Notes: generated by a model not told the origin, from the sequence alone. DNA of 64,000 nt from an uncultured Chitinophagales bacterium (GCA_964653095.1 CAZZEH010000001.1:59833-123832); one strand, 5' to 3'. Counted from the stretch's first letter, positions 11,249-31,426 are shown. Program-made: numbers and translations.

Positions 11249-11347
11249 AAGTGAAAAGTGATTAGTGAAAAATAAACTTTCATGGCTTTTCAGTTTTTAA
11301 TATTCCAATTTTCAGTTTCGCTTGTTTCCTTTAACACGATACTCATT

Positions 11348-11557
11348 TTATTTTATACTTTTCACTTTCAACGTGAGCTCTAAGCCCAGCACTTCAGCTA
11401 ATTTGTTCAATACATCTAACGAAGGATTAGCCTGTCCCCGCTCAAGTTTATACAATGTATTGGTACTGATTTTTGCCAATTCTGCTAAGTGGGGTTGCGT
11501 TATGTTTAACTCTTTTCGTCTGCTCTTTATAGTTTCCCCTATATTCTTAACTGACAT
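11348..11557 (-). CDS. hipB: XRE-family HTH transcriptional regulator (HipB-like)
   Basis: The sequence IGETIKSRRKELNITQPHLAELAKISTNTLYKLERGQANPSLDVLNKLAEVLG is a canonical Cro/C1 HTH. It is the first gene of the three-gene operon. Confidence 0.9.
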   Translation of the reverse strand: MSVKNIGETIKSRRKELNITQPHLAELAKISTNTLYKLERGQANPSLDVLNKLAEVLGLELTLKVKSIK

Positions 11558-11608
11558 TTTATTGTGATTTATATGTCAAAGGTATGTTCTTTTTTCAAAT
11601 TATAAAAC

Positions 11609-11632
11609 AAAACCACATCATAATGTGATTTT
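11609..11632. promoter_or_regulatory. candidate HipB operator: imperfect palindrome AAAACCACAT-CATA-ATGTGATTTT
   Basis: The core CACAT-N4-ATGTG lies at 11614-11627. It is 57-75 nt upstream of the hipB-like ATG at 11557. Confidence 0.4.
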
Positions 11633-11965
11633 AGACGTTAAGGTGGCTGTGGTATTAGTACCAAAGTTCGGGACTTGACGTGGTCGGGATTTTTACTGAT
11701 AATCCAGATAGCTTCCGATAACTATCGGAACGGAATTAATCGAAGTTGTCTTCTGCCGCTTTTGTCAAACTGCATATTGTGCCGGTCATACTTCTTTTAG
11801 ATTCTACTGCCGGAGTTGGGAAAGAGATACCCTTTTGCAATTTTTAGTTACGGCATTGGTCGTGCGAAACGAAGTTCACGAACTCCAAAGACAAAATATA
11901 ATTGCTTGGGTAATTGCAAACCCGCCTGTCGGACGGGCATGTGTGTATGGCTTTAAGCGTTGACA

Positions 11966-14900: not shown

Positions 14901-15184
14901 CGTTTTAGGATAAAACCATCTGCCAGCCACCGCATTGTTTTTTTATTGCTTTCGTAAAGGTCTGCCGAAGAAAGCGTTTTAAGTTGCAGAATAATGGTTT
15001 GCGCTTCGATTTCGGTGAGTTTATCGTTTTGATAGCGATTGAGCAAATAGGCTCTTAAGTCTTCTTCAATCAGTACCTCGCTTTCATTGGAACGCACCAA
15101 ATTACTGCCCACAAAATGCGAATAGCCTTCATTTTCTATAAGCTCTATAAACGCTTGCTCTAATTTTGCTTCAGTGAATTTCAT
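11966..15184 (-). CDS. hsdR: type I restriction enzyme R subunit
   Basis: It has helicase motif I GATGSGKSFTM and motif II ISDEAHRSQ, plus an N-terminal HsdR nuclease region. It is 1072 aa and lies in an operon with hsdM and hsdS. Confidence 0.95.
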   Translation of the reverse strand: MKFTEAKLEQAFIELIENEGYSHFVGSNLVRSNESEVLIEEDLRAYLLNRYQNDKLTEIEAQTIILQLKTLSSADLYESNKKTMRWLADGFILKREDRSQKDIHISLIDYTGIDRQRPSTNLDIIVAEPAVQYPEDTNIYKFVNQLEIVGTERRIPDGILYINGLPLVVFEFKTAIQENTTIHNAYVQLTTRYKRDIPELFKYNAFCVISDGVNNKAGSFFAPYEFYYAWRRIAGLAKGVDGIDSMFTLIQGMLHKNRLRDIIQNFIYIPDTSKKDEKIVCRYPQYYAARRLFDNIKIAERPNGDGKGGTYFGATGSGKSFTMLYLTRLLMKSKHFESPTIVLITDRTDLDDQLSGQFTNAKQFIGDNMVESVESRADLRAKLQGRQSGGVFLTTIHKFTEDTELLTDRTNVICISDEAHRSQTNLDQKIRVTSDGVKKTYGFAKYLHDSLPNATFVGFTGTPIDATLDVFGDVVDAYTMTESVRDEITVRIVYEGRAAKVALHNSELEKIEKYYEEAAEEGANEYQIEESKKATATMNAILGDPDRLQKLAEDFVQHYENRVNEGATVKGKAMFVCSSRDIGYEFYKNVIALRPEWAEIQIAEEGVVLTDKEKREIKPMGKIKLIMTRGKDDPKEMYDLLGTKEYRKELDRQFKNEKSNFKIAIVVDMWLTGFDVPFLDSIYIDKPIQQHNLIQTISRVNRKFKGKNKGLVVDYIGIKKAMNMALAKYNKGERENFEDIQESLIVVRNHLDLLAKIFHKFDSSKYFNGTALEQLNTLNMAAEYVQLTKELEIRFMGLVKRLKAAYDICAGSEQLTQRERDYTHFYLAVRSIVFKLTKGNAPDTAQMNAKVREMIKNALESDGVQEIFVLGDEKQSEQDLFSEDYLAKIDKIKLPHTKIKLLQQLLAKAIGEMKKVNKVKGIDFTKKMQTLVERYNERKEDDVLRSEVYEEMAEHLTNLIWEVQKEFTAGDELGIDFEEKAFYDILKDLCVKYDFHYPEDKLIVLAQAVKDLVDSQAKYPDWSKREDIKSALKVGLIILLDEHGYPPVERDEVYQDIFEQAENFKKNRVITK

Positions 15185-16221
15185 TTATCAGTTTCTTTGG
15201 GTGGAAGTTCCTTTTTGATTATTCTATCAAAATCACTTTCAAATAACCTGTCCTGTATAATTCTGTATTTTTCAAACTCACTTTCTGCGTGAATTCTGGC
15301 AATTTCGGCAGTTACTTTGCCTGCATTTTGTAATATTTCCCTATCGGTAGCTGCTATAAATTTATTCAATCGAGTTTCCCAATCTTCCATTGTCATAGGA
15401 ATTTCCCTCGTAGCCATATCTTCCGCTATATCCAAATAGGCGGAAACCAAACGCTGTAATTGTTGCATTTCGTTTTCCGATAAATAGTTTTTAGCTACAC
15501 TAACATCAAATTTTTGGATTTTACCTTTTGGAGCATCTTTCCAAGTGGTCAATCCCATATTTTCTTTTTGGTGGTCGGCTCGATTTATGATTACTTCCGC
15601 TGCTGTTTGCCCGTGAATTGCCCAATGTAATTTATTCTGCACCACAGCAAAAAAGCGTTTGGTTGCCTGAGCAGTTACATCATAATCAATGGACGTAGCA
15701 TAAATGTCCGTTATCTTTTGATAGAATTTTCGTTCACTTAAACGGATTTCCCGAATGCGTTGGAGTTGTTCTTCAAAATACTTTTTACCGAGAATAGTAC
15801 CATCGTTTTTAAGACGTTCATCGTCCATTGCAAAACCTTTAATGGTAAATTCCTGTACGATTTGCGTTGCCCATTTACGGAATAATACGGCACGTTCGGA
15901 ATTTACTTTGTAGCCCACAGCAATAATAGCCGAAAGATTATAGTGTTTGGTATTGTAGTTTTTGCCGTCTTGAGCAGTTATTCGAAATTTTCGAATAACT
16001 GAATTTTCTTCCAATTCACTATCAGAGAATATTTTTTTTAGATGATAATTAATAGTGTGCGTTTCTACATCGTAGAGTGTTCCCATCATTTTTTGAGTAA
16101 GCCAAATATTTTCATCCGCATAGATAACTTCCACTCCGCTTTCACCTGTAGCTGCAATAAATGTTAAGTATTCAGCTGTAGAAGAACGCACCAATGATTT
16201 TTTATCTTTATTTTTTTTCAT
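15181..16221 (-). CDS. rhuM: RhuM-family protein
   Basis: The N-terminal pattern is GVEVIYADENIWLTQKMMGTLYDV...INYHLKNIF-like, with NLSAIIAVGYKVNSERAVLFRKWAT. Its stop overlaps the hsdR start (ATGA). Confidence 0.85.
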   Translation of the reverse strand: MKKNKDKKSLVRSSTAEYLTFIAATGESGVEVIYADENIWLTQKMMGTLYDVETHTINYHLKKIFSDSELEENSVIRKFRITAQDGKNYNTKHYNLSAIIAVGYKVNSERAVLFRKWATQIVQEFTIKGFAMDDERLKNDGTILGKKYFEEQLQRIREIRLSERKFYQKITDIYATSIDYDVTAQATKRFFAVVQNKLHWAIHGQTAAEVIINRADHQKENMGLTTWKDAPKGKIQKFDVSVAKNYLSENEMQQLQRLVSAYLDIAEDMATREIPMTMEDWETRLNKFIAATDREILQNAGKVTAEIARIHAESEFEKYRIIQDRLFESDFDRIIKKELPPKETDK

Positions 16222-16241
16222 ATTATTGGCTATTTTTTCTA

Positions 16242-16355
16242 TTAAAGAAATAAAGTGGATGTTTTCTTTTGTGAAAACCCTAATTAATTTTCTACGCAGA
16301 CATCTATTATGATGTTGTCGTTTGGATTTTGGTATATGAGAATATTGTTGTTCAT
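16242..16355 (-). pseudogene. decayed fragment of a RhuM/Fic-type N-terminal domain
   Basis: The minus strand reads MNNNILIYQNPNDNIIIDVCVEN*LGFSQKKTSTLFL*. This parallels EVIYADENIWLTQKMMGTLY of the intact rhuM but contains an in-frame stop and ends after ~37 codons. Confidence 0.4.
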
Positions 16356-16366
16356 ATTGTCTGGAA

Positions 16367-16795
16367 CTATGATTTAGATTGATTATTTGATGGACTTTGA
16401 TTTCTTTTGGGTTTCATTACTCTTTTGAATTGAAGGGAAGTGTTGCCAAAATTGATGAGCAAGCCTATTTCCATATTATACGCCTCCAAATAATTAATAG
16501 CTTGAGCTAAATGCACATCTTCCAGTTCTTTGACAGCCTTAATTTCCAACATAATTTTATTTTCAATAAAAAAATCAACTCTCCTTTTACCTATATCATA
16601 TCCTTTGTATTGTAAAGGCATTTCTTGTTCTCTAACGTGGACGATACCCTGCATGTTTAATTCTATGGATAATGCTCTTTGGTACACTACTTCCTGAAAT
16701 CCATTTCCCAAATATCTGTGTACTTCCATTGCACAGCCAATAATCTTGCCTGTTAATTCTGAATATTTGTATTGTTCATTAATCATAGTATTCAT
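16367..16795 (-). CDS. GxxExxY-family protein (PD-(D/E)XK-like)
   Basis: It contains the GFQEVVY (GxxExxY) motif, D..ENKIMLEIK (D-E-x-K), and the pattern HLAQAINYLEAYNMEIGLLINFG. Confidence 0.85.
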   Translation of the reverse strand: MNTMINEQYKYSELTGKIIGCAMEVHRYLGNGFQEVVYQRALSIELNMQGIVHVREQEMPLQYKGYDIGKRRVDFFIENKIMLEIKAVKELEDVHLAQAINYLEAYNMEIGLLINFGNTSLQFKRVMKPKRNQSPSNNQSKS

Positions 16796-16810
16796 TCAAT
16801 CATTTTAAAA

Positions 16811-17938
16811 TCATAGTTCAAGACTATTCTCCACAACCCCTCTCATCAACACCGGGCAAAGCGGTTTTACCATTTCTTTTAATTGCTCATTAATGCGTTT
16901 TCTACTTTCTAAAGCATGGTATAGAGTTACAATAGCTTCTTGTTTTCCTATGCTTGGAATGGGAATTTTTATTTCTGTAAATCTTTCCCAATCTAAACTT
17001 GCTCTCACACTACTATCGCTGTAAAACCATCCCTTTCGATTAAACTCTGGACGATAAAACCACAGCATTAAAAATTCAGGAATAATAATTTTTTCATCTA
17101 ATACTTTAAATACGTGATAAGCTGGTGATATAATAGCAGGTTCTTCAAATGAATATAGAACAACTCTTACTGTTTCATCTCTGCCAACTTGCATTGCTGA
17201 ATATGCAAATTCACCTTTCTGAATAATTTTGTATTTCACTAAGTTTTCTGCGGTAGTCTTTGCTTTTGAAGGCATAAAAACTTTCTCTACATTAATTCCA
17301 AGTAGATTTGTTATTTCATTGTTTATATTCCTATTATCAACCAATTCGACTAAATTGCCAATTGAATCTATGTTTTCATCTTTGACAGTGTCCATATAAG
17401 TATCGCATATCAACTGCAAGTCCTCCAAGCTACTTTCATACACTTTTTGGTTGTTGAGCAAACCTTGATAAATAGCTACATATTTACGTTGTTCGGAAAT
17501 ATCGGGAATTGGGATTTCAATATCGCAAAAACGCTCCCATTCCAAACTTGCTCTTACACTGCTATCGCTAATAAACCAACCATATCTATCCGACTCTGGA
17601 CGTTGAAACCACATCATCATATATTCTGGAATTAGCTCGTTTTCATCTTTACTTTCAATAACCAAATAGGCAGGCGAAATAATTGCAGGCTCATCACCTG
17701 TATATAGAGCAAGACGAATGGTTTCATCTCTACCTACTTGCATTGCTGAATAAGCAAACTGACCTTTTTTAATAATTTTATATTTAGACAAGTCTGTACC
17801 CGAAACATTGGCAACGGAAGGCATAAAGTTTTTGGTAATATTGATGCCCAAAAGATTTGTAACAGCCAAATCAATATTTCTGTTATCTACCAATTGTATG
17901 TAGTCGCCTAAACGTTTATATGTTTTATTTTCAGTCAT
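16811..17938 (-). CDS. hsdS: type I restriction enzyme S (specificity) subunit
   Basis: Two TRD plus conserved-helix halves are present. The internal duplication has an ungapped 183-aa offset. The gene lies between hsdM and hsdR. Confidence 0.9.
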   Translation of the reverse strand: MTENKTYKRLGDYIQLVDNRNIDLAVTNLLGINITKNFMPSVANVSGTDLSKYKIIKKGQFAYSAMQVGRDETIRLALYTGDEPAIISPAYLVIESKDENELIPEYMMMWFQRPESDRYGWFISDSSVRASLEWERFCDIEIPIPDISEQRKYVAIYQGLLNNQKVYESSLEDLQLICDTYMDTVKDENIDSIGNLVELVDNRNINNEITNLLGINVEKVFMPSKAKTTAENLVKYKIIQKGEFAYSAMQVGRDETVRVVLYSFEEPAIISPAYHVFKVLDEKIIIPEFLMLWFYRPEFNRKGWFYSDSSVRASLDWERFTEIKIPIPSIGKQEAIVTLYHALESRKRINEQLKEMVKPLCPVLMRGVVENSLEL

Positions 17939-19139
17939 TCTTAATGCTTAATTGTTGCTCTATTTCTTCAATGGTAGGCAATGAAGATTTTAAATTTTCA
18001 GGTACTATTTGTGTAAGTTCAAATTCGCTCACACCCATTGGTTTATTAATATCTCGCAAAGCAAACTCTGCCTCTAAATTATTCTTTTCTCTACACATTA
18101 AAATACCAATGGTTGGTTTGTCGTTATCTTCTTTTAATAAGGAGTCAACAGCGGAAAGATAAAAATTTAATTTTCCTGCATATTCGGGAATGAAGCTGGT
18201 GTTTTTCAGTTCAATAACCACATAACATTTCAGCTTGATGTGATAAAACAATAAATCGATGTAATAATCTTTATTGGCAATTTCAAGATGATATTGTTGT
18301 CCAACAAAAGCAAAACCCTTTCCTAATTCCAAAAGGAATTTTTTGATATGGTTTACCAATTGATTTTCAATATCTCTTTCTCTGTAATTTTCAGAAAGCT
18401 GAAGAAAATCAAAAATATATGGGTCTTTGAGTGTTTGTTGTGCTAAATCGGAAAAAGGTTCCGGAAGAGTATTTGAGAAATTAGTTATTGCACCGCCTTT
18501 TCTTTGAAATAGATTTGATTTAATCTGTAAGGTCAAAGTATCTCTACTCCAATTGTTTTCTTTGGTTTTTTGAATATAAAAGAAGGCTTCATTTAAATCT
18601 TTGATTTTGGTTATTATTACAATAATATGTCCCCAAGGTATTTGAGCAATTACGCTTTCTAATATAGTTTGGTCAACAGCTTGTTGGCTTTTTGCAATAT
18701 CCTTGTTTTCAGCACCTTGCAATTGGTTCGCAACTTGTGAACCAATTGTGTTTTGCGTGTCTTCAAATAGGTTCACAGCCTGTGAACTAATTTCGTTTTG
18801 CGTGTCTTCCAATTGGTTAACAGCCTGTAAACTAATTTGAAATTCACCCTCAAGTTGGGAACTAAAAGCGAAGTATTCATAAAAAAGCCTACAGAATTTT
18901 AGGTTTGAAACCGAAAAACCTTTCATCTCCGGAAACTCATCTTTTAAGTCCTTTGAAACATTTTCTAAAACCTTATCTCCCCAATTACTTGTTTTGATTT
19001 TTTCAGAAAGCATTTTCCCCAAATCCCAATAAAAAAGAATGAGTTCTCTGTTTACAGCAACTGCCGCTTTTAATTGAGCCGAGCGAATTTTCTGCTTAAC
19101 TTCCCGAATCCATATTTTATAATTTTCATCAATTTGCAT
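17931..19139 (-). CDS. YhcG/DUF1016-family PD-(D/E)XK nuclease-domain protein
   Basis: The N-terminal DUF1016 helical pattern is WIREVKQKIRSAQLKAAVAVNRELILFYWDLGKML. The C-terminal part is FAFVGQQYHLEI...IDLLFYH..L.CYVVIELK. Confidence 0.85.
   Translation of the reverse strand: MQIDENYKIWIREVKQKIRSAQLKAAVAVNRELILFYWDLGKMLSEKIKTSNWGDKVLENVSKDLKDEFPEMKGFSVSNLKFCRLFYEYFAFSSQLEGEFQISLQAVNQLEDTQNEISSQAVNLFEDTQNTIGSQVANQLQGAENKDIAKSQQAVDQTILESVIAQIPWGHIIVIITKIKDLNEAFFYIQKTKENNWSRDTLTLQIKSNLFQRKGGAITNFSNTLPEPFSDLAQQTLKDPYIFDFLQLSENYRERDIENQLVNHIKKFLLELGKGFAFVGQQYHLEIANKDYYIDLLFYHIKLKCYVVIELKNTSFIPEYAGKLNFYLSAVDSLLKEDNDKPTIGILMCREKNNLEAEFALRDINKPMGVSEFELTQIVPENLKSSLPTIEEIEQQLSIKND
18706..18840. repeat. 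3 x 45-bp in-frame tandem repeat inside the yhcG-like gene
   Basis: Units 18751-18795 and 18796-18840 are near-identical and 18706-18750 is degenerate. They encode SQAVNQLEDTQNEIS / SQAVNLFEDTQNTIG / SQVANQLQGAENKDI. Confidence 0.8.
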
Positions 19140-19151
19140 AGCTTGTCGTTT

Positions 19152-20756
19152 TTAAAGTTCGTACCCCAAAGTTTTAAAAGCGTTAATCAATTGCTCCTGT
19201 GATTCTTTTTCTTTTTTCAACAGGGCTTTGAAATCTTGTTGAATCCGCTTCATTTCGGTGTCGAAATCAATACCACTGTCTTTGTCCACAAATTCAATGT
19301 ATTTACTGGGTACTAAGGAGAAATCATTGGCTACTACATCGACAAAGTTGGCAGATTTGCAAAACTCCGGCACGTTTTTATAGGATGAAGTTGGAGCTTC
19401 ATCCAGCCCAGGGGTCTGCCAGTTATGGTAATTTGCAGCAATTTTTTGAATGTCTTCTTCAGTTAGTTCCACATACTTCTTTTCATATTCGCTTCCCCAA
19501 CGTCTTAAATCCATAAACAAGATTTCTCCCGTACGGTCTCTGTAGTTTTTGGGTTTCTCCTTTGTATCATCGGTGCGTGCTTTTTTGTTTTTGTTCAAAA
19601 TCCAAAGCGTCACACTGATATCGGTGGTATAAAAAGTATTTCGTGGAATAATGATGATGGCTTCTACCAGGTCGTTTTCAATTAATTTCCTACGGATTTT
19701 ATATTCATCGCCACCACCTGACAAAGCGCCATTGGCAAGAATGAAACCTGCAACGCCATTTTCAGAAAGCTTGCTCACCATATTCAAAATCCAGCCATAG
19801 TTGGCGTTGCTTTTGGGTGGCACTTCGTAGCCCATCCAACGCGGGTCGTCCAACAATTCATTCTCTCCCCGCCAATCCTTCAGGTTAAAGGGTGGGTTTG
19901 CCATAATATAATCTGCTTTCAGGTCTTTGTGTTGGTCGTTGGAGAATGTATCTGCGTGTCTATCACCAAGATTAGCAGAAATGCCCCGAATAGCAAGGTT
20001 CATTTTTGCCAATTTGTAGGTAGTAGGTGTATTTTCCTGTCCGTAAATAGAAACTTCCTTTTTGTTTCCTTGATGACTTTCTATAAATTTGATGGACTGC
20101 ACAAACATTCCGCCTGTACCGCAACAAGGGTCATAAATAATGCCTTTGTAAGGTTCAATCATTTCTGCAATCAGGTTGACAATGGTTTTAGGTGTATAAA
20201 ACTCGCCTTTGCCTTTTCCGCTGCTTTCTTTCAGCGCAAATTGACCCAAGAAATATTCATACACGCGGCCAATAACATCTTGCCCTTTGTCTTTGAGGGT
20301 ATCAATTTCGTTGATGGTGTCAAGTAATGAAGCCAATTTGGTTTTATCAAATGCCAAACGGGAAAAATAATTGTCTGGCAAAGCTCCTTTCAATGCAGGG
20401 TTGTTTTTCTCAATGGTGTTGAGTGCTGTATCAATTTTAAGTGAAATATCGTTTTGTTTGGCATTTTTGATAATGTAGCTCCATCGAGAAATTTCTTCCA
20501 AATAGAATACATTTTTCATTGTGTAGAAATCCCTCATTTCTACATATTTCTCTTTGCCTTCGACCAAAAGTTCATCTCTTCTTTGCTCAAATTTATCTCC
20601 TGCAAATTTTAAGAAGATTAAACCGAGAACCACGTGTTTGTACTCAGAAGGTTCTACTGAACCTCTCAATTTATCGCACGATTGCCATAAAGTTTCTTCA
20701 ATTGATTTTTCTTTCTTGCCCTGAGCTTGTCGTACGAGTACTTTCTGTTTGGCCAT
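19152..20756 (-). CDS. hsdM: type I restriction enzyme M subunit (N6-adenine DNA methyltransferase)
   Basis: It has the HsdM N-terminal domain, the AdoMet motif IYDPCCGTGGM, and the catalytic NPPF (IMANPPFN). Confidence 0.95.
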   Translation of the reverse strand: MAKQKVLVRQAQGKKEKSIEETLWQSCDKLRGSVEPSEYKHVVLGLIFLKFAGDKFEQRRDELLVEGKEKYVEMRDFYTMKNVFYLEEISRWSYIIKNAKQNDISLKIDTALNTIEKNNPALKGALPDNYFSRLAFDKTKLASLLDTINEIDTLKDKGQDVIGRVYEYFLGQFALKESSGKGKGEFYTPKTIVNLIAEMIEPYKGIIYDPCCGTGGMFVQSIKFIESHQGNKKEVSIYGQENTPTTYKLAKMNLAIRGISANLGDRHADTFSNDQHKDLKADYIMANPPFNLKDWRGENELLDDPRWMGYEVPPKSNANYGWILNMVSKLSENGVAGFILANGALSGGGDEYKIRRKLIENDLVEAIIIIPRNTFYTTDISVTLWILNKNKKARTDDTKEKPKNYRDRTGEILFMDLRRWGSEYEKKYVELTEEDIQKIAANYHNWQTPGLDEAPTSSYKNVPEFCKSANFVDVVANDFSLVPSKYIEFVDKDSGIDFDTEMKRIQQDFKALLKKEKESQEQLINAFKTLGYEL

Positions 20757-20806
20757 ATATATTCCTTTTATATTGTTCTCTTATTTGTGTTATGCACGCA
20801 GACAGA

Positions 20807-20814
20807 CAAATTTA
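20807..20814 (-). promoter_or_regulatory. candidate -7 promoter box (TAAATTTG) for the hsdM operon
   Basis: This is an exact TAnnTTTG match on the minus strand, 50 nt upstream of the hsdM ATG. A TTG lies ~22 nt further upstream. Confidence 0.45.
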
Positions 20815-21140
20815 ACCTATTTTGCCCGAGTGTTGACAAGAAACAGCTCTTTTGGTTTTTCAGCTTAAGCTTTCGAGTTGGCAAAAACCAAATGTGCTGC
20901 TTTAGCGGTTGGCTCTTCAGTATGCCGCGCAACTCGTTCACATACGCAACTAAAATACATTTTATTTCGCATATATGTATCATTTTGGTTGTCTATACGC
21001 AGCCTTAATTGCACCCAATTTTAAAGGTCGTCAAACGGACTCTTGATATTTTGAATACTTTTCATAGTTACGTGCGTATAATTAGTTGTGCGACTACTGT
21101 AACTGTATTCTACCGAAGATTTAAAGAAATTCCAATACAC

Positions 21141-22316
21141 TTATTGCGGAATCCTATTTACAGAAGAAGATGAAGAGAGAAAGGCATTTGAAAAAATCCA
21201 TCCTTTCAGACTGTCTGCAAGTTCTCTCTGAGCGGCTTCATTCAAATGATACGTATCATGTGGAGAGATATTTTTCTTCTCCGTTTTGAGCCGAAATAGC
21301 TTGGATGAATATCCCGACAAAATTTTTACCAGTCTGAAATCATATTTAGTTTTGCTCAATTTTATAAAGCGTTTCAAATTTTTGTCATACATCCATTGTC
21401 CATCCTCTATGTCTGAATAAAATTGATTTTCTGAAACAAACACATTAAAACTTGCCTGATGATTCACGCACACACTTTGTATGGAGTCCAAAAGTGCCCG
21501 AGTCAGCCGAATACCGTATTCTAACCTTTTGGTCATAGTATCAGAATACAAAATCAGGTGCGTTTTTTCTTCTTTCAATTTTTCACTGATTCCCACCCAA
21601 GGAGTAGTTTTTTTGCTCAGCGAAGTATCCGCTCCGATCTCCGCTCTCGGAGGAAGAAAATTTTTACTCCAGACATCATCTAATTTTTGAGCTTTTCTAT
21701 GCTGTATGGCCCGCTCAAATAAAGCGGCTATTTTAAGTTCTCTTGTCTGCCGAAATTCAATATCAGACAGTTCCAAAACAAGCTTATCCTGCCGGAGTAT
21801 AAAAGTCGGTTTGGGAGTTCCGTTCCAGGGCCAATGAGTGGGAAACATATTGTTCCAGATGTCATTTTCGGGAGTAAACCACAAGAAAACATGGTCCATC
21901 TCATGTTTTTCAAGGACCTTTTGGAACCAAATCAACTGCTGATCCTGCCCGTATCCTCCGGTTCCCACAGTAAATATCCGATAAGTCGTCGAATCCGAAT
22001 TAAAATTTAGTACTCTTTGCAACAAATTTTCCATTTGAAGACTGTCTGCCAAATCCAGTGATTCGACCTGTGAATCTCCAAGAAGTAAAATCCACTTTTC
22101 GCTCTTCGGTTTAATATCCGGAATTGGTTTCCCTTTAAATCCATACTGATTGACCTCATTTGCATCGGGATTATTGGAGAGATAAGTCCACCCTGTCGGG
22201 ATTACTTCCAACTCTTTCGGGAAGTTTATCTTTCTGAAAAAAAACTCAGAAAGTATAAGCATGATTACTAAGGCAATCAGAAACAAAGCGATATTTCCTT
22301 TTACTGCTTTTCTCAT
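21141..22316 (-). CDS. membrane-anchored SGNH/GDSL-type hydrolase-like protein
   Basis: There is one N-terminal TM. Block I is LLLGDSQVE, block III-like is ENDIWN, and block V is HDTYHLN (DxxH). The ATG at 22316 is preferred over the TTG at 22331. Confidence 0.6.
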   Translation of the reverse strand: MRKAVKGNIALFLIALVIMLILSEFFFRKINFPKELEVIPTGWTYLSNNPDANEVNQYGFKGKPIPDIKPKSEKWILLLGDSQVESLDLADSLQMENLLQRVLNFNSDSTTYRIFTVGTGGYGQDQQLIWFQKVLEKHEMDHVFLWFTPENDIWNNMFPTHWPWNGTPKPTFILRQDKLVLELSDIEFRQTRELKIAALFERAIQHRKAQKLDDVWSKNFLPPRAEIGADTSLSKKTTPWVGISEKLKEEKTHLILYSDTMTKRLEYGIRLTRALLDSIQSVCVNHQASFNVFVSENQFYSDIEDGQWMYDKNLKRFIKLSKTKYDFRLVKILSGYSSKLFRLKTEKKNISPHDTYHLNEAAQRELADSLKGWIFSNAFLSSSSSVNRIPQ

Positions 22317-22429
22317 TTTTATGAGAACCAAGTTAGAAATTTATTACTTTCATATCTAATGAAAAAATGGAAGTTCGATTCAATGAACTGCCCAATATGA
22401 AATTTTAATATTTTGCAGTAACTTAAGAC

Positions 22430-24145
22430 ATGCTGTCTGAAAACGAGAACAATAAGATTCGCCAAGACATTATTCGATTTTTAAATGAATTGGACAGGAG
22501 TTCGTATGCGGACTTATATCAGAAAACAATCTATCCACACTCTGAAAAATTTGAAAGCAATATTGATATTTTAATTGCATTCACTCCAAAATTCATTCAA
22601 AGCTTAGCCTGGCTTTCAGACAATCCGACATCTTTTGCAGAAGGCTCAAAGTTGTTTTTAGACGGCATCAAAAACTCCCGGGCTTATAAGGATATTCTTT
22701 TCGCAATCTGGTCAAATCACCCCGACAAAACAGTTAAATTTATTACTGATTTGGATGAAGTCAGGCTAAACAGATTCATTAGAAAAATGGAATTTAAAGA
22801 CTCTTTCTATTATGAAATTGGGCCTCCAAACGACCGCAACCCAATTTATTTCCTGTATGACCGGGACACTCCATCGGCAAAAAGAGAAACATACGACAAC
22901 ATTCTTGATTTAGACGCAACTTACAATGGAGATACCGAATTCTATTCGAGAGATTATCTCAGCTGGCCGGGATTATTTCACATTTATTTTCCCGACAGAA
23001 AGATTATTTTAACTTCCGACAAGACAAAAATTCCCGATAAATATATTTACATTCTAACTTTCAACTACTTCAAATCATTTATTGAGCAACAGCAATTAAG
23101 AAACAGTCATTCTCTGCCTATTGATGAAAATATTTTAAAAGATGCTCAAATTGGTAAAGCTCTTATTTTATGGAATGACAGCCACGAATATTCAAATATT
23201 TATAAGAATAAAAAATGGTGGAACAAGGCTTTAAGCCAAAAAAAGATTGCACAAAATAGTGTTGTATTTACAGGAGATTTTACCGGGTACAGAAAAATAA
23301 ATGCTCCAAACAGATTATTTCCTTTTAGCATATTTCAAAAATCGAATCAAATTAAAACCAAGCTGTATGCAATCAGATATTTTGAAGAAGCACTAAAATC
23401 AATTATTCTTTACCATTATCCTAATTACTCTTTTAACAAAAGGTACGAAGCTCTCCATTCTGTGCAAAACGGCATCAAACACTTCCTTTGTCTGAATAAT
23501 ATTATAAAAGATTACAGAGTCACCTTAAGCTATCTCTTTTACAAAAATAATTTTCTTGAAACTTCTTATATCAGTCAGAAGGCTTTTAACGGTACAAAGG
23601 ATTTTCAGTTTAATCACAACTCACATTTATCAATGAAATCATTAATTGATTCTGAGCTATTTGAAAAATTCAGAGCAAGTCTTCCATGGGTTGTGGATAC
23701 AAAAGAGCAGGAGTCCGGATGGTGGAATACAATACCTATAAAAAATATCAGCCGGTCTTTTGTTTGGGTGAATACAGAAACAGAGTTTGGAAGCTATACC
23801 CCCAAAGAAAAATCTTTTATCACAGAAAAAACTTATAAACCTATAGCGTTTTTCATGCCTTTTATTATGGTGGGACCTCCACTGACTCTGCAAACCCTGA
23901 GAGAAGAAGGTTATCAGACTTTCTCAAAATGGTGGGATGAATCTTATGACAAAGAGGTTAATTCTTTAAAAAGAATGAAAAAAATTGAAGCATTACTCAT
24001 TGAAATCTCAAAATGGAGCAGAAAGAAATTACTTTCTGTTACCTTAGCGATGAAAGATGTGTTGGAACACAATCACAGGCATTTATTAAACGTAAAAAGA
24101 AGTTTGCCTTCTTTGCAGGCAGTCTTGGATTTATACCACAAATGA
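22430..24145 (+). CDS. hypothetical 571-aa protein (orphan; C-terminus with a weak glycosyltransferase-like FITEK...MVGPP motif)
   Basis: It is a long uninterrupted ORF. Its stop overlaps the ATG of the radical-SAM gene (ATGA at 24142-24145). No confident family call is possible. Confidence 0.6.
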   Translation: MLSENENNKIRQDIIRFLNELDRSSYADLYQKTIYPHSEKFESNIDILIAFTPKFIQSLAWLSDNPTSFAEGSKLFLDGIKNSRAYKDILFAIWSNHPDKTVKFITDLDEVRLNRFIRKMEFKDSFYYEIGPPNDRNPIYFLYDRDTPSAKRETYDNILDLDATYNGDTEFYSRDYLSWPGLFHIYFPDRKIILTSDKTKIPDKYIYILTFNYFKSFIEQQQLRNSHSLPIDENILKDAQIGKALILWNDSHEYSNIYKNKKWWNKALSQKKIAQNSVVFTGDFTGYRKINAPNRLFPFSIFQKSNQIKTKLYAIRYFEEALKSIILYHYPNYSFNKRYEALHSVQNGIKHFLCLNNIIKDYRVTLSYLFYKNNFLETSYISQKAFNGTKDFQFNHNSHLSMKSLIDSELFEKFRASLPWVVDTKEQESGWWNTIPIKNISRSFVWVNTETEFGSYTPKEKSFITEKTYKPIAFFMPFIMVGPPLTLQTLREEGYQTFSKWWDESYDKEVNSLKRMKKIEALLIEISKWSRKKLLSVTLAMKDVLEHNHRHLLNVKRSLPSLQAVLDLYHK

Positions 24146-25530
24146 AATTTTCGAAAGTCATAAAACAAACCATTCTTCCTTCAGGAGATTTCCAGAAAGC
24201 AGTACAGGGATATAATTTGAAAAGAAGTCCTCTGACTTGGAATACCTTTTGTCAGGCGCCTTTTACCAATATGTACATTGCACACCACGGCTATGTGCGG
24301 GCATGCTGCTACATTGCCGTACACGTATTGGGCGTTTGGCCGCATAAGAGTCTGATGGAAATTTGGAATGGTCCGAAAGCTGAAGAACTCAGAGAAGCAC
24401 TGAGTAACTATGATTTGTCAAAAGGATGCGGTACTTGTCATCAACAGCTTATGGCACGAAATTATGACGGTCTGAAGGCATCACAATTCAATTATCACAA
24501 AAGGAATAATAACGGCTTTCCTACCTGTATAGAATTTGAGTTAGACAATAAATGTAATCTCGGATGCACGATGTGCGATGAAAACTTCTCTTCGGTGATT
24601 GCACACAATAAAGGATTAAAAGCCTATAAAACACCCTATAATGAAGACTTTTTAGAGCAATTAAAACCTTTTATTCCTCATCTGCACGAAACTAAATTTT
24701 ACGGTGGTGAGCCATTCATGATAAAAATTTATTACGACATCTGGGATTTAATTTACAAGTTGAATCCTCAGTGCAGTATTAATATCCAGACGAATGGTAC
24801 AATTATGAATAAGAGAGTGAAAGAGCTTCTTGAAAGACCAAATATCAACTTTAACGTGTCTATTGACAGCCTGCAGGAAAAAAACTACGAAAGCATTCGC
24901 GTAGGTGCAACTTATTCGGAAACAATGAGTAATCTGGAGCGCTTCATTGATTATTCCAGAAAACACAAAACGTTTATGGGAATTTCATCTTGTATGATGC
25001 AAAATACCGCACATGAAGCCCCGGATTTTATTCGTTTTTGCAATGAACGGGATATTCAAATATACTTTCATACGGTCATACAACCCGAAGATGCCTGTAT
25101 CAAAAATATGGATAAAAAAGATATTGAAAATCTTTTAAAACATCTGAAATCTCAGGATTTTCAGGCTAAAACACCATTGCACAGAAAAAACATCAACCAT
25201 TATCGGGATTTTATTAAACAGGTAGAATATTGGTTAGAACATAAAGATGCAAATGAAACAGTCATGACACGCAATCCGGTTCAGGATTGGGATGATTTTT
25301 TTGATCGGATAGAAAGAGCTTCCATTGCTATCTTTGGGGAGGAGCCCGGTTTAAAAAAATCAGAGCATTTTAAATCAAATATTGAAAAAATGTATGCACT
25401 GGGAATTATCAAAGATAAAAAGGATATTTTCAGGCACGTACAACACGACGATTTAAGCAGTTCAGTACATAAAATTGTAGATTTATCCTTCGAACAGTTG
25501 GTACAGGCGTATCAAAACGAACACTTGTAA
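24142..25530 (+). CDS. radical SAM enzyme with an N-terminal twitch (half-SPASM) domain
   Basis: The radical SAM motif CNLGCTMC (CxxxCxxC) lies at 24553-24576. Upstream are CQAPFTNMYIAHHGYVRAC (C-x12-G-x4-C) and CGTC (CxxC). The ATG at 24142 is chosen over the upstream in-frame start at 24013. Confidence 0.85.
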   Translation: MKFSKVIKQTILPSGDFQKAVQGYNLKRSPLTWNTFCQAPFTNMYIAHHGYVRACCYIAVHVLGVWPHKSLMEIWNGPKAEELREALSNYDLSKGCGTCHQQLMARNYDGLKASQFNYHKRNNNGFPTCIEFELDNKCNLGCTMCDENFSSVIAHNKGLKAYKTPYNEDFLEQLKPFIPHLHETKFYGGEPFMIKIYYDIWDLIYKLNPQCSINIQTNGTIMNKRVKELLERPNINFNVSIDSLQEKNYESIRVGATYSETMSNLERFIDYSRKHKTFMGISSCMMQNTAHEAPDFIRFCNERDIQIYFHTVIQPEDACIKNMDKKDIENLLKHLKSQDFQAKTPLHRKNINHYRDFIKQVEYWLEHKDANETVMTRNPVQDWDDFFDRIERASIAIFGEEPGLKKSEHFKSNIEKMYALGIIKDKKDIFRHVQHDDLSSSVHKIVDLSFEQLVQAYQNEHL

Positions 25531-25572
25531 AGTACCGAAAAAAAAGCTGTAAAAGCGAGGCACGTACAGCAC

Positions 25573-25986
25573 TTATCTAATCGTCCCAATAAAACGGCGG
25601 CAATCATAAACCGGAAGTTCTGAAAAGTAAAAATCTTCGACATCTTCGGTGATAACAGCCTGACAACCGTACTGCAATGCGGAATAATACTCCAAACCAT
25701 CTTCAAAATCTAACACTTTTGGATTGGAAGCAGCCAAAGAAACCGTTTCCCTGTTAGTCTCTATGATGCTCAAATGCTCAGAAAGAATCACCATCTTCTC
25801 TTTGGCCCGTTTTGTCCCGCATTTCTTTTCAGCAAAATAGACAGCAATTGCCAGACAAATCGGTGAAGTACATACCTCATATCCATACCGCTCTGTCAAA
25901 CTTAAAATTCTTGATGAATAGGTAAACAAAGGATACTCCCTGTTAAGAACAGAGACAATGACATTGGCATCCAGGAAAATTTTCAA
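25573..25986 (-). CDS. PIN-domain toxin (VapC-like)
   Basis: The N-terminus is MKIFLDANVIV. Conserved acidic residues include ITEDVEDF. It is 137 aa and starts 2 nt after the antitoxin gene. Confidence 0.85.
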   Translation of the reverse strand: MKIFLDANVIVSVLNREYPLFTYSSRILSLTERYGYEVCTSPICLAIAVYFAEKKCGTKRAKEKMVILSEHLSIIETNRETVSLAASNPKVLDFEDGLEYYSALQYGCQAVITEDVEDFYFSELPVYDCRRFIGTIR

Positions 25987-25988
25987 AA

Positions 25989-26243
25989 CTATTTCTTGGA
26001 ATCAAAAAAATCAGATTTCATTTTTTTACGTGAGGGCGTACGCCTGTACTCTATTCGCTCTTCTGCCACCATATTCACCCAGTCGGCTATCGGCAAATCA
26101 TCAATCAGACGGGCATTTCCGGAAGTCAGCTTTTCATATATTAACTCCGTCAGCCGAGACAAACTCATCCCTCTGTCCGCCGCATAGTCTTTAGCCTTTT
26201 CGATGACCTCTTTATTAAAGGAAAGTGTGATTTTGGCATCCAT
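25989..26243 (-). CDS. ribbon-helix-helix-type antitoxin (VapB-like)
   Basis: The N-terminus MDAKITLSFNKEVIEKAKDYAADRGMSLSRLTELIYEKL follows a beta-strand plus two-helix RHH pattern. It lies directly upstream of the PIN gene. Confidence 0.75.
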   Translation of the reverse strand: MDAKITLSFNKEVIEKAKDYAADRGMSLSRLTELIYEKLTSGNARLIDDLPIADWVNMVAEERIEYRRTPSRKKMKSDFFDSKK

Positions 26244-27403: not shown

Positions 27404-27826
27404 CTACTGCAATATAGACCAGGTCTGCCAAGGAATTCTAGTCAGTATCAAAATCAGTCCTAAAACATAATAAATCGCAATAGACTTGGCAGCTGCTTCA
27501 TCAGAAACCTTTTTAGACTTAATATGACCTACAGTCACCAAAATTATAGCTAAAATGCCAATCAGAGGGTGTTCCAGCGCATATAAACGAGATACAGGAC
27601 TGCTCATTGCTTCTGCGGAAAGACTGGCAAATCCTTTTGCCGAAATGAAATACAGAACCAGCCCAACAGTAAACTGTGTATGAAGAAAAATCATTGTAAA
27701 CTTGGCAATTTTTCGTAGCTTATTGTCTGCTTTTTTATTGAGGATAGCCAAAACAACAGATAGTAATAAGCCAATAAGTATAGCTATTGCCAAAACAGAA
27801 TGTAAATGTCTTAACCCGGTTTCCAT
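27404..27826 (-). CDS. hypothetical 4-TM membrane protein with conserved-looking His residues
   Basis: Four hydrophobic segments are present. His residues occur in or near the TM segments (HLHS, FLHTQF, LEHP, VGHI). Confidence 0.55.
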   Translation of the reverse strand: METGLRHLHSVLAIAILIGLLLSVVLAILNKKADNKLRKIAKFTMIFLHTQFTVGLVLYFISAKGFASLSAEAMSSPVSRLYALEHPLIGILAIILVTVGHIKSKKVSDEAAAKSIAIYYVLGLILILTRIPWQTWSILQ

Positions 27827-27988
27827 ATAATATTGTTTTGGACGAAGATACTTTAAAAAATACTATTCCATGTCCGTTTTAATGAATTACAGCCTCTCCG
27901 AAGAGCGCGAATAAAGTATTTTTCCGCATTGATATGGAAAAAGGAGAATTTTAGCATCTTTATATACAGCACGTATGAATTTTATTTT

Positions 27989-30900
27989 ATGACAGCCCAC
28001 GCACAGTTTTTATTTGACGAAATACTTCAAACTCATCTCAGCGAAAAAACGCTTGCCGAAAAATATTCTGCAATGAGAAAAATTTTGGAAAGTGCACTGA
28101 GACTGATTACCTCCAAACAGGAGATTCAATTTCCCGATTTATACTCCAAACTCACCTATGTGACCGATTTGCTTAAGTTTTCGTCCCGGGAGCAGTTCGG
28201 AATACAGAATATGAGAAAAAATGCGCACCTTATTATTCTGAATAAATTCACACCCGACGAATATACCTACTATCGGGATTTGAGTGCATTAACCTACAGT
28301 GTTGCAAAAATCACAGAAGCTACTATACCGGTAAATCTGCTAACAATCGTGCAAAGCCCTCCCCTGCCGGAAAGCAAGCCAGCTTCAAAAAAGACCGAGT
28401 CCGAACATCTGAATCTGATACGTTTTTATGTTTTAAAAGTCAGTGAAGGAGAAATCCTGGGCAGAGCCGATCAGTATCCGGAAGACTATCTCAATGCAAT
28501 TTACGACCCCAAAAACTCTCCATTCAAAGAAAGTCTGAGTTATGTCAAACCGGGGCAGGTGATGCACCTGATTAACTGTCAAAAAGAAGGCAATAAAGTT
28601 ACACCTGAACTGTTCATACTCGAACCGGACTATCTTTTGGATATCAGCTCGGTAGCAGAATGTTTCAAATCATACGGTACTCATCCGTATAATTATTTTA
28701 TGAGCCGGATTACTTCCAAAGAAATTACTGTACCCATCCTGCTCGGTAATATCGCCAATCACTTCTTAGATATTTTTGTCAACCTGCCAAAAGACAGTAC
28801 TGCAAAGTTTAAAGACACCATGAAAGAAGTGTTTAAGCTTTTCCCGTTTGATATTTCCGTGAACACTGCTTTAGACGACAGAGCACATCTCCTTAGACTG
28901 TTTGACGACGCAGAACGGCAGTTTAATCATATTAAACATGTGGTACAGGAAGTGCTTCCTCAACAAAATATTCCGTTAGAACAGGCCGTTTTGGAGCCGA
29001 GTTTCTTCTGTCCGCAATTGGGTATTCAGGGGCGTTTGGACTTCCTTTCCATTCGTCCGGAAAACACTACGGTGATTGAACTTAAATCCGGCAAAGCTCC
29101 GTTTCCGGAAAGCAATACATCTTTGGTCGGTATCAATCACAGTGTTCAGCTTTTCTTATACCAAATTGTAATTCAAATGGTTTTGGGTATAAAATTCAAG
29201 CACATAAACAGCTATCTGCTGTATTCCAAATACAATGACCCAAAGTCCAACCTAAGAATGGTCAGACCCTATATGGAAAAAATTAAAGAAATTCTGGACC
29301 TGAGAAATCAGATTGTTTTCATCGAAAGAAGTGTTTCCGAAAATGAAGATTTATTTGAGAAAATCATCAGCGATATTTCTCCCAAAGTACTGATTAATGC
29401 AGGCGGCCAGAATGAGAAATTTATACAAAACTATATCATCCCGCAGATTGAGGCGTTCAAACAGCCTTTTGTCCATGCCGGTGAATTAGAAAAAGCATAC
29501 TTCTACAGTTTCTACAGCTTTGTCAGCAAGGAACTTTACATTACCAAAGCAGGAGTCAGTCACTATGACCAGGCATTGGGACACTCCGGCATTTGGCTCA
29601 ATGAAGCAGATGTTAAAATAGATGCCGGCGATATTCTCTGGGACCTGCAGATCACAGAAAATCTGTCTGATACGGAAAGGCCTGTTATTCGTCTGAGCAT
29701 CCCGGAATATAATGCTGATTTTCTTCCAAATTTCAGGCAGGGCGATATTGCTATCCTCTATCCCCGCAACCATGCCGGAGATAATGTAAGCAACAAACAA
29801 ATTTTTAGAGGAAGTATTATTGAAATCAATCATGAAGAAGTGGTTCTGCTTCTCAGATACCGTCAAAACAACACCCATTTTCTCCCCAATGACAGTCTGT
29901 ATGCTATCGAGCATGACTTTTTGGAGTCCTCGTACCGGGCAATGTTCATGGGACTGTACACTTTTTTGGAAGCCAACCAGGACAGAAAAGATTTGCTGCT
30001 CAACCAAAGAGTTTTAAGAATCTCCAATCAGGTACAGCTCAACAGACCCTGCGAAATACCGGAAATACAGCAGATAGTAGAAAAAGCAAAGAAAGCAGAA
30101 GATTATTTTCTGCTTATCGGACCGCCGGGTACCGGAAAAACCTCAATTGCTCTGAAATCTATGGTGGACGAATTTTATTCCGAACCACAAACAAATATTC
30201 TGCTGCTGGCATATACCAACCGGGCAGTAGATGAAATATGTGAATCTATTTCACAAATACAGCCTGAAATTGAATACATACGCATAGGGTCTGAATTTTC
30301 CACAGAGAAGAAATTTCAGCATCGTCTGCTGCAAAATGTGATCAAGCCATTCAGCAAACGGAATGAAGTAAAAAATACGCTTCAAAACTGCAGAGTGTAT
30401 GTCGGCACAGTGGCCTCTGTCTCAGGTAAATCTGCTCTTTTCAAACTTAAAAAATTTGATGTGGCCATCGTGGATGAAGCTTCTCAAATTTTGGAGCCCC
30501 AGATTATAGGAATTCTGACTGCAAAACACCCGGATAATGCGCACGCCATTAAGAAATTTATTTTAATTGGGGATCACAAGCAACTGCCTGCTATCGTAGT
30601 ACAAAGTCCGAAAGCAAGTATTGTGCGGCATCCAAAACTTTTGGATATCGGAATCACCGACAGAAGAATCTCTCTGTTTGAACGACTATACAGATACCAC
30701 GAAAAAGATAAACACTCCCCACATTGGTCCATGCTGAAAAAACAGGGGCGAATGCATGCTCAAATCGCTGAATTTTCCAATAAAGAATTTTATGGCGGAG
30801 AACTGCAGGTCGTACCGGTGACCCATCAGAGAAAATCATTGGAATGGAATATCACGGACAGTAAAGATTTTTTGCAAAAAATTGCGGCAACTGAGCGTTT

Positions 30901-31426
30901 AGTGTTTTTCGCCTCGAAAAAAACAGATTCAGATCAATCTTTCAAAGTAAACTCTTTCGAAGCTGAACTGATTGCAAAATTGCTGGAAAACATACATTAC
31001 CTATACCAAACCCACCAGACAGAGTTTAATCCCAAAACATCAGTCGGCATTATTACTCCGTACAGAAGTCAGATTGCCCTGATCAGAAAAAAAGTCCTTG
31101 AACTCAATTTACCCGAACTGAATGAGATTACCATAGATACGGTTGAAAGATATCAGGGTTCACAACGGGATATTATACTGTATTCTTTTTGTGTAAATCA
31201 TGAAAATCAACTTGAATTATTATCCAACACCTTTATCGAAAACGGCATTTCAATTGACCGGAAACTCAATGTCGCCTTAACGAGAGCCCGAAAACAACTT
31301 TTCATCACGGGCAATCCATATTTTTTGGAAAAAAATGTCATCTTTAGTAAAATGACCGAACATATTCGAAAATACGGTATTTATATTGAGAGTGAGAGAT
31401 TAAATAAATCCGGCACCCGTCTGTAA
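27989..31426 (+). CDS. RecB-like PD-(D/E)XK nuclease fused to a Upf1/Dna2-type SF1 helicase (Nhi-like)
   Basis: Nuclease motifs are GRLDF, IELK and QLFLY (QxxxY) at ~29020-29165. Helicase motifs are GPPGTGKTS, IVDEASQ, IGDHKQLPA, GRMH, YQGSQRDII and NVALTRAR. The ATG at 27989 is preferred over the TTG at 27929. Confidence 0.85.
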   Translation: MTAHAQFLFDEILQTHLSEKTLAEKYSAMRKILESALRLITSKQEIQFPDLYSKLTYVTDLLKFSSREQFGIQNMRKNAHLIILNKFTPDEYTYYRDLSALTYSVAKITEATIPVNLLTIVQSPPLPESKPASKKTESEHLNLIRFYVLKVSEGEILGRADQYPEDYLNAIYDPKNSPFKESLSYVKPGQVMHLINCQKEGNKVTPELFILEPDYLLDISSVAECFKSYGTHPYNYFMSRITSKEITVPILLGNIANHFLDIFVNLPKDSTAKFKDTMKEVFKLFPFDISVNTALDDRAHLLRLFDDAERQFNHIKHVVQEVLPQQNIPLEQAVLEPSFFCPQLGIQGRLDFLSIRPENTTVIELKSGKAPFPESNTSLVGINHSVQLFLYQIVIQMVLGIKFKHINSYLLYSKYNDPKSNLRMVRPYMEKIKEILDLRNQIVFIERSVSENEDLFEKIISDISPKVLINAGGQNEKFIQNYIIPQIEAFKQPFVHAGELEKAYFYSFYSFVSKELYITKAGVSHYDQALGHSGIWLNEADVKIDAGDILWDLQITENLSDTERPVIRLSIPEYNADFLPNFRQGDIAILYPRNHAGDNVSNKQIFRGSIIEINHEEVVLLLRYRQNNTHFLPNDSLYAIEHDFLESSYRAMFMGLYTFLEANQDRKDLLLNQRVLRISNQVQLNRPCEIPEIQQIVEKAKKAEDYFLLIGPPGTGKTSIALKSMVDEFYSEPQTNILLLAYTNRAVDEICESISQIQPEIEYIRIGSEFSTEKKFQHRLLQNVIKPFSKRNEVKNTLQNCRVYVGTVASVSGKSALFKLKKFDVAIVDEASQILEPQIIGILTAKHPDNAHAIKKFILIGDHKQLPAIVVQSPKASIVRHPKLLDIGITDRRISLFERLYRYHEKDKHSPHWSMLKKQGRMHAQIAEFSNKEFYGGELQVVPVTHQRKSLEWNITDSKDFLQKIAATERLVFFASKKTDSDQSFKVNSFEAELIAKLLENIHYLYQTHQTEFNPKTSVGIITPYRSQIALIRKKVLELNLPELNEITIDTVERYQGSQRDIILYSFCVNHENQLELLSNTFIENGISIDRKLNVALTRARKQLFITGNPYFLEKNVIFSKMTEHIRKYGIYIESERLNKSGTRL

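Follow-up and report, generated by a model that had tools for sequence, protein, structure and literature searches.

Does a large nuclease-helicase gene that stands a few kilobases from a defence-type island protect its host against phages, or does it belong to the ordinary upkeep of the chromosome? The question is raised by a 64,000-nt stretch of DNA from an uncultured Chitinophagales bacterium (GCA_964653095.1 CAZZEH010000001.1:59833-123832; hereafter the window, with positions counted from its start), in which a gene at 27989..31426 on the plus strand encodes a protein of 1145 amino acids (aa). The original prediction, made from the sequence, read it as a stand-alone immunity gene resembling the anti-phage system Nhi. 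We find that the gene encodes a nuclease-helicase that has, as judged from structure models, the architecture of eukaryotic Dna2 and lacks an iron-sulfur (Fe-S) cluster. In view of this Dna2-like build and of the large chromosomal family found across the Bacteroidota, the protein most likely serves in genome maintenance rather than in defence against phages.

The open reading frame (ORF) is complete, with the stop codon included in its coordinates, and it translates without internal stops, as had been claimed for a stand-alone gene of this length. The longest possible ORF begins at a TTG codon at 27929; homologues begin at the ATG at 27989. The immediate surroundings are also as described earlier: a 140-aa ORF with weak membrane-protein matches (27404-27826) lies 5' on the minus strand, and an S41/PDZ protease gene starts at 31518, after a gap of 91 nt. 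All of the nuclease and helicase motifs originally named are found where they had been placed. In the nuclease these are GRLDF (aa 348-352, nt 29030-29044), IELK (aa 363-366, nt 29075-29086) and the QxxxY motif QLFLYQ (aa 387-392, nt 29147-29164), and in the helicase GPPGTGKTS (aa 711-719), IVDEASQ (aa 827-833), IGDHKQLPA (aa 860-868), GRMH (aa 920-923), YQGSQRDII (aa 1055-1063) and NVALTRAR (aa 1094-1101). A Pfam scan of the protein agrees, with PDDEXK_1 at aa 233-421 (28.5 bits against a cutoff of 22) and both AAA_11 (E 2e-27) and AAA_12 (E 1.2e-35) in the helicase. The reading of the protein as a RecB-like nuclease joined to a superfamily 1B (SF1B) helicase of the Upf1/Dna2 type is correct.

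Conservation was measured in an alignment of 63 family members from Bacteroidales, Saprospiraceae, Chitinophagales, Flavobacteriales, Cytophagales, Ignavibacteria and Cloacimonadota. The nuclease residues D214, E336, R349, D351, E364, K366, Q387 and Y391 are invariant (63/63), as are the helicase residues K717 and T718 of the Walker A motif, D829, E830, Q833, Q865, R921, Q1056 and R1099. Both activities are therefore under strong purifying selection. The four-cysteine Fe-S staple that Dna2, Bad, AddB and Cas4 possess is absent, as the original prediction had noticed. The only cysteines conserved in the nuclease domain of the 63 members are C225 (95%) and C341 (54%), and in the window protein no cysteine follows the QxxxY motif within this domain.

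The full-length protein was modelled with AlphaFold2 (predicted local distance difference test, pLDDT, 81.3; predicted TM-score, pTM, 0.76), and residues 1-215 were modelled separately (pLDDT 90.5). The predicted layout comprises, in order, a helical bundle, an oligonucleotide-binding (OB)-like barrel, a RecB-type nuclease, a stalk, a β-barrel and two RecA-like helicase domains. The six-helix N-terminal bundle (aa 1-121, 27989..28351; this and the following segments are all on the plus strand) is family-specific and reaches a pLDDT of about 95 in the domain model. It has no match among solved structures and none by Foldseek at E < 1e-3; one relative of the long class described below has a weak, sub-threshold DUF4145 match in this region. 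The modelled strands that follow form a five-stranded, OB-fold-like β-barrel (aa 139-211, 28403..28621), for which Foldseek returned OB folds exclusively (Stn1/Ten1, RPA, Teb1, RecO and IF1) with high probability and E values of 0.02-0.08, none below 1e-3. We regard this barrel as a putative single-stranded DNA (ssDNA)-binding domain, for which the fold class is consistent and the statistics are weak. The RecB-family PD-(D/E)XK nuclease domain (aa 212-440, 28622..29308), identified by PDDEXK_1 and by the profile comparison below, is connected to the barrel and motor by a helical stalk (aa 441-546, 29309..29626), which is assigned from the AlphaFold2 secondary structure and falls within the whole-length superposition on Dna2. 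The second β-barrel (aa 549-642, 29633..29914), also assigned from the model, is the equivalent of the Dna2/Upf1-type barrel and carries a conserved NFRxGD...NKQxFxG motif, and the SF1B helicase, with domains 1A and 2A, occupies aa 690-1130 (30056..31378; AAA_11/AAA_12). The first ~340 residues had been described as lacking any motif and suggested to be a sensor. In the models this suggestion gives way to three parts, namely the helical bundle, which is still unmatched, the OB-like fold, and the first half of the nuclease.

When the predicted model was compared with the PDB using Foldseek, the top match was mouse Dna2 (5EAN), aligned over 1,126 columns with a TM-score of 0.63 on the query (TMq), 0.68 on the target (TMt) and an E value of 9.8e-42. 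The entries 5EAN, 5EAW and 5EAX together span ~1,126-1,140 columns (TMq 0.60-0.63, TMt 0.65-0.68, E ~1e-41 to 5.5e-40). Other matches, to Ighmbp2, Upf1, Senataxin, Aquarius and nidovirus nsp13, cover the helicase half only, at a TMq of ~0.4 or less. Mouse Dna2 is also the best PDB match by sequence (E 3.5e-24, helicase region). The family profile matches Dna2 at E 1.6e-34, with profile positions 529-1132 aligned to Dna2 454-1036 and the alignment reaching upstream into the β-barrel, and the nuclease region of the profile matches the RecB-type nuclease of mycobacterial AdnA (E 7.5e-5). Dna2-like repair enzymes had been offered as a secondary comparison; this turned out to be the best one.

Full-length homologues are abundant (97-100% coverage, 42-63% identity) and carry generic database names such as "AAA domain-containing protein" and "DEAD/DEAH box helicase". 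Residues 1-680 were taken as the family-specific part for searches. Against representatives of clusters at 50% identity they gave 1,202 matches, 985 at E ≤ 1e-10 and 615 at E ≤ 1e-30, and the best 150 of these are nearly all 1,000-1,470 aa long. Species-representative genomes contain at least 54 loci with relatives covering both nuclease and helicase. Among the loci listed are Prevotella, Segatella, Bacteroides, Proteiniphilum, Dysgonomonas, Muribaculaceae, Saprospiraceae (including Saprospira grandis), Chitinophagales, Cytophagales, Flavobacterium, Ignavibacteria, Kapaibacterium and Cloacimonadota, and the family spans the Bacteroidota and the wider Fibrobacterota-Chlorobiota-Bacteroidota (FCB) group. 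In a neighbour-joining tree the sequences group largely by taxonomic family: Saprospiraceae, Prevotella, Dysgonomonadaceae and Bacteroides form clades, the window protein groups with Chitinophagales metagenome-assembled genomes, and the FCB members outside the Bacteroidota lie at the base. Two members labelled 'Clostridia bacterium' (L027) and 'Hyphomicrobiales' (L039) nest within Bacteroidota clades, and their non-FCB labels probably reflect mis-binning. At 1,698 aa, the L027 protein is unusually large.

Family members occur in three size classes. The window protein belongs to a class of about 1,110-1,180 aa. A shorter class of about 980-1,020 aa, from Bacteroidales (L006, L008, L010, L032 and L040), is without the first ~175 residues, which comprise the bundle and a portion of the OB-like barrel; some relatives align only from query residue ~176. 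The N-terminal module is therefore dispensable in some lineages. The long class, of about 1,395-1,460 aa (P0016, P0021, P0053, P0057, P0067 and P0052; L005:8001-12356), ends in a class-I S-adenosylmethionine (SAM)-methyltransferase domain of ~300 aa with a DFGCGP motif, which scores 30.7 bits with Methyltransf_25 in P0057. This domain shows weak similarity to small-molecule and RNA methyltransferases (Rsm22, HEN1, CmoA and TrmB). An assignment as a DNA methyltransferase of the restriction-modification (R-M) type was rejected, the matches being weak and confined to small-molecule and RNA class-I enzymes. On the tree, the domain looks to have been gained or lost more than once.

The genomic setting of the gene was considered both in the window and among its relatives. 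At a GC content of 0.402 and a third-position GC content (GC3) of 0.419, the gene resembles the core genes of the window. The R-M block has a higher AT content, its GC3 falling as low as 0.27. The composition of the gene is thus native and unlike that of the neighbouring island of R-M and toxin-antitoxin genes. The original prediction had placed the gene at the edge of a defence-type block. Such a block is present upstream, but an epimerase gene and the 140-aa ORF intervene, and the immunity role that had been drawn from this location is unsupported. Across 58 loci no neighbour or operon partner is conserved beyond the genus or family level, and no PADLOC family is found more than once among 141 nearest neighbours from about 50 loci. 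The commonest Pfam families among these neighbours are ordinary ones, namely ADI/DDAH, outer-membrane β-barrels, alanine racemase, diacylglycerol kinase and Mur ligase, while RecJ, SSB and Ogt occur twice each. In B. finegoldii the homologue follows tatA-tatC, murF/alr, GSCFA, dxs and trkA on the core chromosome. All four relatives in the clade of the window protein have the same divergent DDAH/ADI pair upstream and differ in their downstream flanks; the window has no flanks in common with related loci. Relatives thus occupy ordinary chromosomal contexts with synteny at the level of lineages. Conservation and synteny within the taxon had been named as speaking against a defence role, and to a large extent this is the observed situation, in core contexts and across the FCB group.

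Residues 1-680 have no match in 50,697 phage records and match 3 of 72,556 plasmid records, all three being Bacteroidales replicons that are non-mobilizable. The size of one is 1.77 Mb, and another, the B. finegoldii record, is core chromosome on inspection. Among the matches listed for IMG/VR viral contigs there is helicase-core similarity only, and the viral structure predictions of BFVD likewise gave helicase-only matches. Variable defence DNA was found near the family gene in 2 of about 60 loci, namely the window and a Chitinophagales relative (L088), in which an island of Dcm methylase, HATPase_c_3, Z1, DUF4420 and AIPR genes (14380-23459) lies downstream, beginning 0.85 kb from the homologue. 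The overall pattern is one of a chromosomally stable gene, with variable DNA inserting in its vicinity. No Rfam element or structured RNA associated with the gene was found, and a scan for promoters and terminators around it gave counts no higher than those in shuffled sequence, using a sigma-70 consensus that is not appropriate for Bacteroidota.

The account that we favour, and consider probable, is that of a single-chain Dna2-type enzyme for processing DNA ends and flaps, native to the chromosome of a Chitinophagales-like member of the Bacteroidota. By analogy with Dna2 and with Bad, a bacterial enzyme resembling Dna2, the N-terminal OB-like domain would bind a free 5' ssDNA tail, which would be threaded past the RecB-type nuclease site (D351/E364/K366) before reaching the SF1B motor at the C-terminus (Walker A K717). 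Because the motor would translocate 5'->3' along the same strand, the nuclease is proposed to cut the ssDNA that is fed to it. In the cell, 5' strands may be resected or trimmed in this way at double-strand breaks, at long flaps, or at forks that have stalled and reversed, and SSB and a 3'->5' helicase would probably take part. We infer from the same analogy that the substrate would be DNA rather than RNA, that a free end would be required, and that polarity and pathway would follow those of the better known enzymes; dependence of the ssDNA endonuclease on a free end, and 5'->3' translocation, are known for both Bad and Dna2.

It appears unlikely that the protein is instead a single-gene anti-phage nuclease-helicase, a functional analogue of Nhi that degrades phage DNA after recognising phage replication intermediates or free DNA ends. 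Nuclease-helicase fusions can be stand-alone defence genes, Nhi being the example (10.1101/776245). The PF09848 profile, however, scores 19.8 bits in the window protein against a cutoff of 24, and no PADLOC or NCBIfam defence model matches over the full length; the resemblance to Mokosh MkoA and to PLuB helicases, which might also suggest defence, lies in the helicase core. Proximity to defence genes counts in favour of such a role: in the window a PIN toxin-antitoxin pair lies 1.7 kb away and a Type I R-M system ~7 kb away, and in L088 the Dcm-Z1-AIPR island is close to the gene. Yet the lack of any recurrent PADLOC neighbour, the syntenic core-chromosome contexts, the clades that largely follow taxonomy, the absence of phage or mobilizable-plasmid copies and a native composition unlike the adjacent island all argue against it. 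The Nhi-like immunity gene originally predicted is not supported on these grounds, nor on those of protein size and wide chromosomal spread. A nuclease that processes DNA ends could still degrade linear phage DNA as a side activity. RecBCD degrades linear phage DNA.

Similarly improbable, in our view, is an RNA-directed enzyme in which a Upf1-like motor acts on RNA in surveillance, processing or decay. After Dna2, the closest relatives of the helicase are the RNA helicases Upf1, Ighmbp2, Senataxin/Sen1 and MkoA. A match that runs the full length of the protein, nuclease and barrel included, is given by Dna2 alone, which acts on DNA, and the nuclease is of the RecB/AdnA type that processes DNA ends. 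The weak matches of the long-class methyltransferase to RNA and small-molecule enzymes could point towards RNA, but the window protein is without this domain, and its relatives occasionally neighbour RecJ, SSB or Ogt and have no recurrent partner in RNA metabolism. A decayed relic or a chance ORF annotated in error is close to negligible as an explanation, given an intact frame of 1145 codons, thousands of homologues, invariant catalytic residues and a confident structure model.

Several observations weigh against the favoured assignment to Dna2-type genome maintenance. The family lacks the Fe-S cluster that has an important structural part in Dna2, Bad and AddB, so the nuclease tunnel may be built differently, and the C-terminal methyltransferase of many relatives is left unexplained by a pure Dna2 model. 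Upf1-like helicases include many RNA helicases, and a defence island lies within a few kilobases of the gene both in the window and in L088. The tree shows some incongruence, with one Prevotellaceae sequence placed in the long class. The proteins of Epilithonimonas vandammei (P0021, Flavobacteriales) and Emticicia sp. ODNR4P (P0053, Cytophagales) are nearly identical across orders, either through recent transfer or through a mislabelled or contaminated assembly. Finally, the family is known from sequences and structure models, and its spread is given as a lower bound (at least 54 loci in species-representative genomes).

The defence-type island itself is an AT-rich region at 9919-26243 (~9.9-26.3 kb). 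It contains a HipA toxin split into two parts (10910-11248 and 9919-10923), together with a Type I R-M system composed of hsdR (11966-15184), hsdS (16811-17938) and hsdM (19152-20756), whose genes are interrupted by a RhuM gene (15181-16221), a PDDEXK_3 gene (16367-16795) and a YhcG/DUF1016 gene (17931-19139). A 45-bp tandem repeat (18716-18838; 2.7 copies, 83% matches) lies within the YhcG/DUF1016 gene. Further along are two ORFs with no Pfam or PADLOC match, of 396 aa (21141-22331, minus strand) and 571 aa (22430-24145, plus strand), and a radical-SAM/SPASM gene (24013-25530) that adjoins both and overlaps the latter by ~130 nt. The sole PADLOC match of the radical-SAM/SPASM gene is to the radical-SAM core of pVip (E 4e-12), and the three could form a peptide-maturation or unknown defence cassette inside the island. 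The PIN/DUF6364 toxin-antitoxin pair (25573-26243) forms its right end. Elsewhere in the window, a 151-bp unit is tandemly duplicated (2846-3136; 2.0 copies, 79% matches) between a plus-strand gene ending at 2645 and an ABC-transporter gene.

No paper describing a Dna2-like family of Bacteroidota was found in the library that was searched. The proteins constitute an uncharacterised, Fe-S-free bacterial family of Dna2 type, which fails one defining feature of Dna2 and Bad and adds an N-terminal bundle and, in many lineages, a methyltransferase. A broader proposition, that FCB bacteria carry as part of their core a vertically inherited, complete Dna2-architecture nuclease-helicase without the iron-sulfur staple that is regarded as integral to the class, and fused in many lineages to a SAM-methyltransferase, is put forward tentatively, as plausible but still on the doubtful side. 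If it is true, Dna2-type processing of 5' strands would be a major and unstudied part of bacterial genome maintenance, and the family would offer a tractable Fe-S-free model of Dna2 and, as a bacterial group, would be a candidate sister to the eukaryotic enzyme. It could show which functions of Dna2 need the Fe-S cluster, and how the Bacteroidota that dominate the gut process DNA ends and flaps, which is relevant to their responses to metronidazole and other DNA damage. A false defence candidate is also removed: an adjoining island of R-M and toxin-antitoxin genes is insufficient evidence when the gene family is phylum-wide and chromosomal.

Comparison with known systems places the family as follows. 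Nhi (SERP2475) is a 606-aa protein in which an HsdR-like PD-(D/E)XK nuclease is combined with a DUF2075/PF09848 helicase, and in which the glyoxalase-like C-terminus is poorly conserved; it is found in <1% of complete genomes, is horizontally spread and often plasmid-borne, and usually lies near defence genes (10.1101/776245). The window protein resembles it in being the product of a stand-alone gene and in carrying, on one polypeptide, a PD-(D/E)XK nuclease at the N-terminus and an SF1B-like helicase behind it. In contrast to Nhi, it is 1145 aa long, the additional parts being the helical bundle, the OB-like barrel, the stalk and the second barrel, and its family is chromosomal, widespread and not associated with defence. 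The sub-threshold similarity to PF09848 (SLFN-g3_helicase) covers profile positions 4-93 of 354, which is the P-loop part only. Membership of Nhi was rejected on profile score, protein size and distribution.

Among other defence models, MkoA, MkoC, DpdJ, PLuB and ProA match in the helicase core only. Mokosh MkoA and PLuB share with the window protein a homologous Upf1-like core, but the matches are limited to this core and the barrel, and the N-terminal 680 residues of the window protein are unrelated. Mokosh was rejected, as the PADLOC MkoA match (E 1.1e-61) covers aa 786-1127 only and neither the window protein nor its neighbours have a PLD domain. PLuB was rejected at 212.7 bits (NCBIfam PLuB_AAA, NF040671; E 6.2e-63), far below the cutoff of 999; the IGHMBP2-type helicase model also scores below its own cutoff. 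Cas4 shares the RecB-family nuclease fold and the GxxD, ExK and QxxxY motifs with AddAB, RecBCD, AdnAB and the window protein. Unlike the latter, Cas4 is a small Fe-S protein encoded beside CRISPR arrays, and it was rejected on matches that are weak both in PADLOC and with TIGR00372 (24.1 against a cutoff of 65), the missing cysteine cluster and the absence of any CRISPR-like array in the 64-kb window.

Bad from Geobacillus stearothermophilus is a monomeric Dna2-like enzyme with ssDNA endonuclease, 5'->3' translocase and helicase activities, which was found through its iron-staple signature and contains an Fe-S cluster (PMC7430649). Set beside the window protein by description, it is likewise a bacterial single chain in which the N-terminal nuclease is of RecB type and the C-terminal helicase of the SF1B kind. 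The Fe-S cluster of Bad is absent from the window family, the distance from nuclease Asp to Walker A Lys is 665 residues in Bad (D150 to K815) against 366 in the window protein (D351 to K717), and Bad-like bacterial and archaeal examples are described as few (PMC7430649), in contrast to a large phylum-wide family. In AddAB, RecBCD and AdnAB, despite the AdnA profile match, the nuclease lies C-terminal to an SF1A UvrD-like motor in a multi-subunit enzyme, whereas the window protein is a single SF1B chain without Fe-S.

Eukaryotic Dna2 is the closest of all. The window family differs from it in lacking the four-cysteine Fe-S cluster, in an identity of only ~19%, in its extra six-helix N-terminal bundle, in being bacterial, and in the C-terminal SAM-methyltransferase of many relatives, which Dna2 does not have. 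Dna2 itself starts with an OB domain in the published structure, and in human DNA2 about 377 residues separate the nuclease Asp D277 from the Walker A Lys K654, a spacing similar to the 366 of the window protein. The order of modules is shared, with an accessory, putatively OB-like domain, a RecB-family nuclease, a stalk and β-barrel, and an SF1B helicase, and Dna2 is the best match by sequence, by profile and by predicted fold, the last of these spanning the whole length of the protein.

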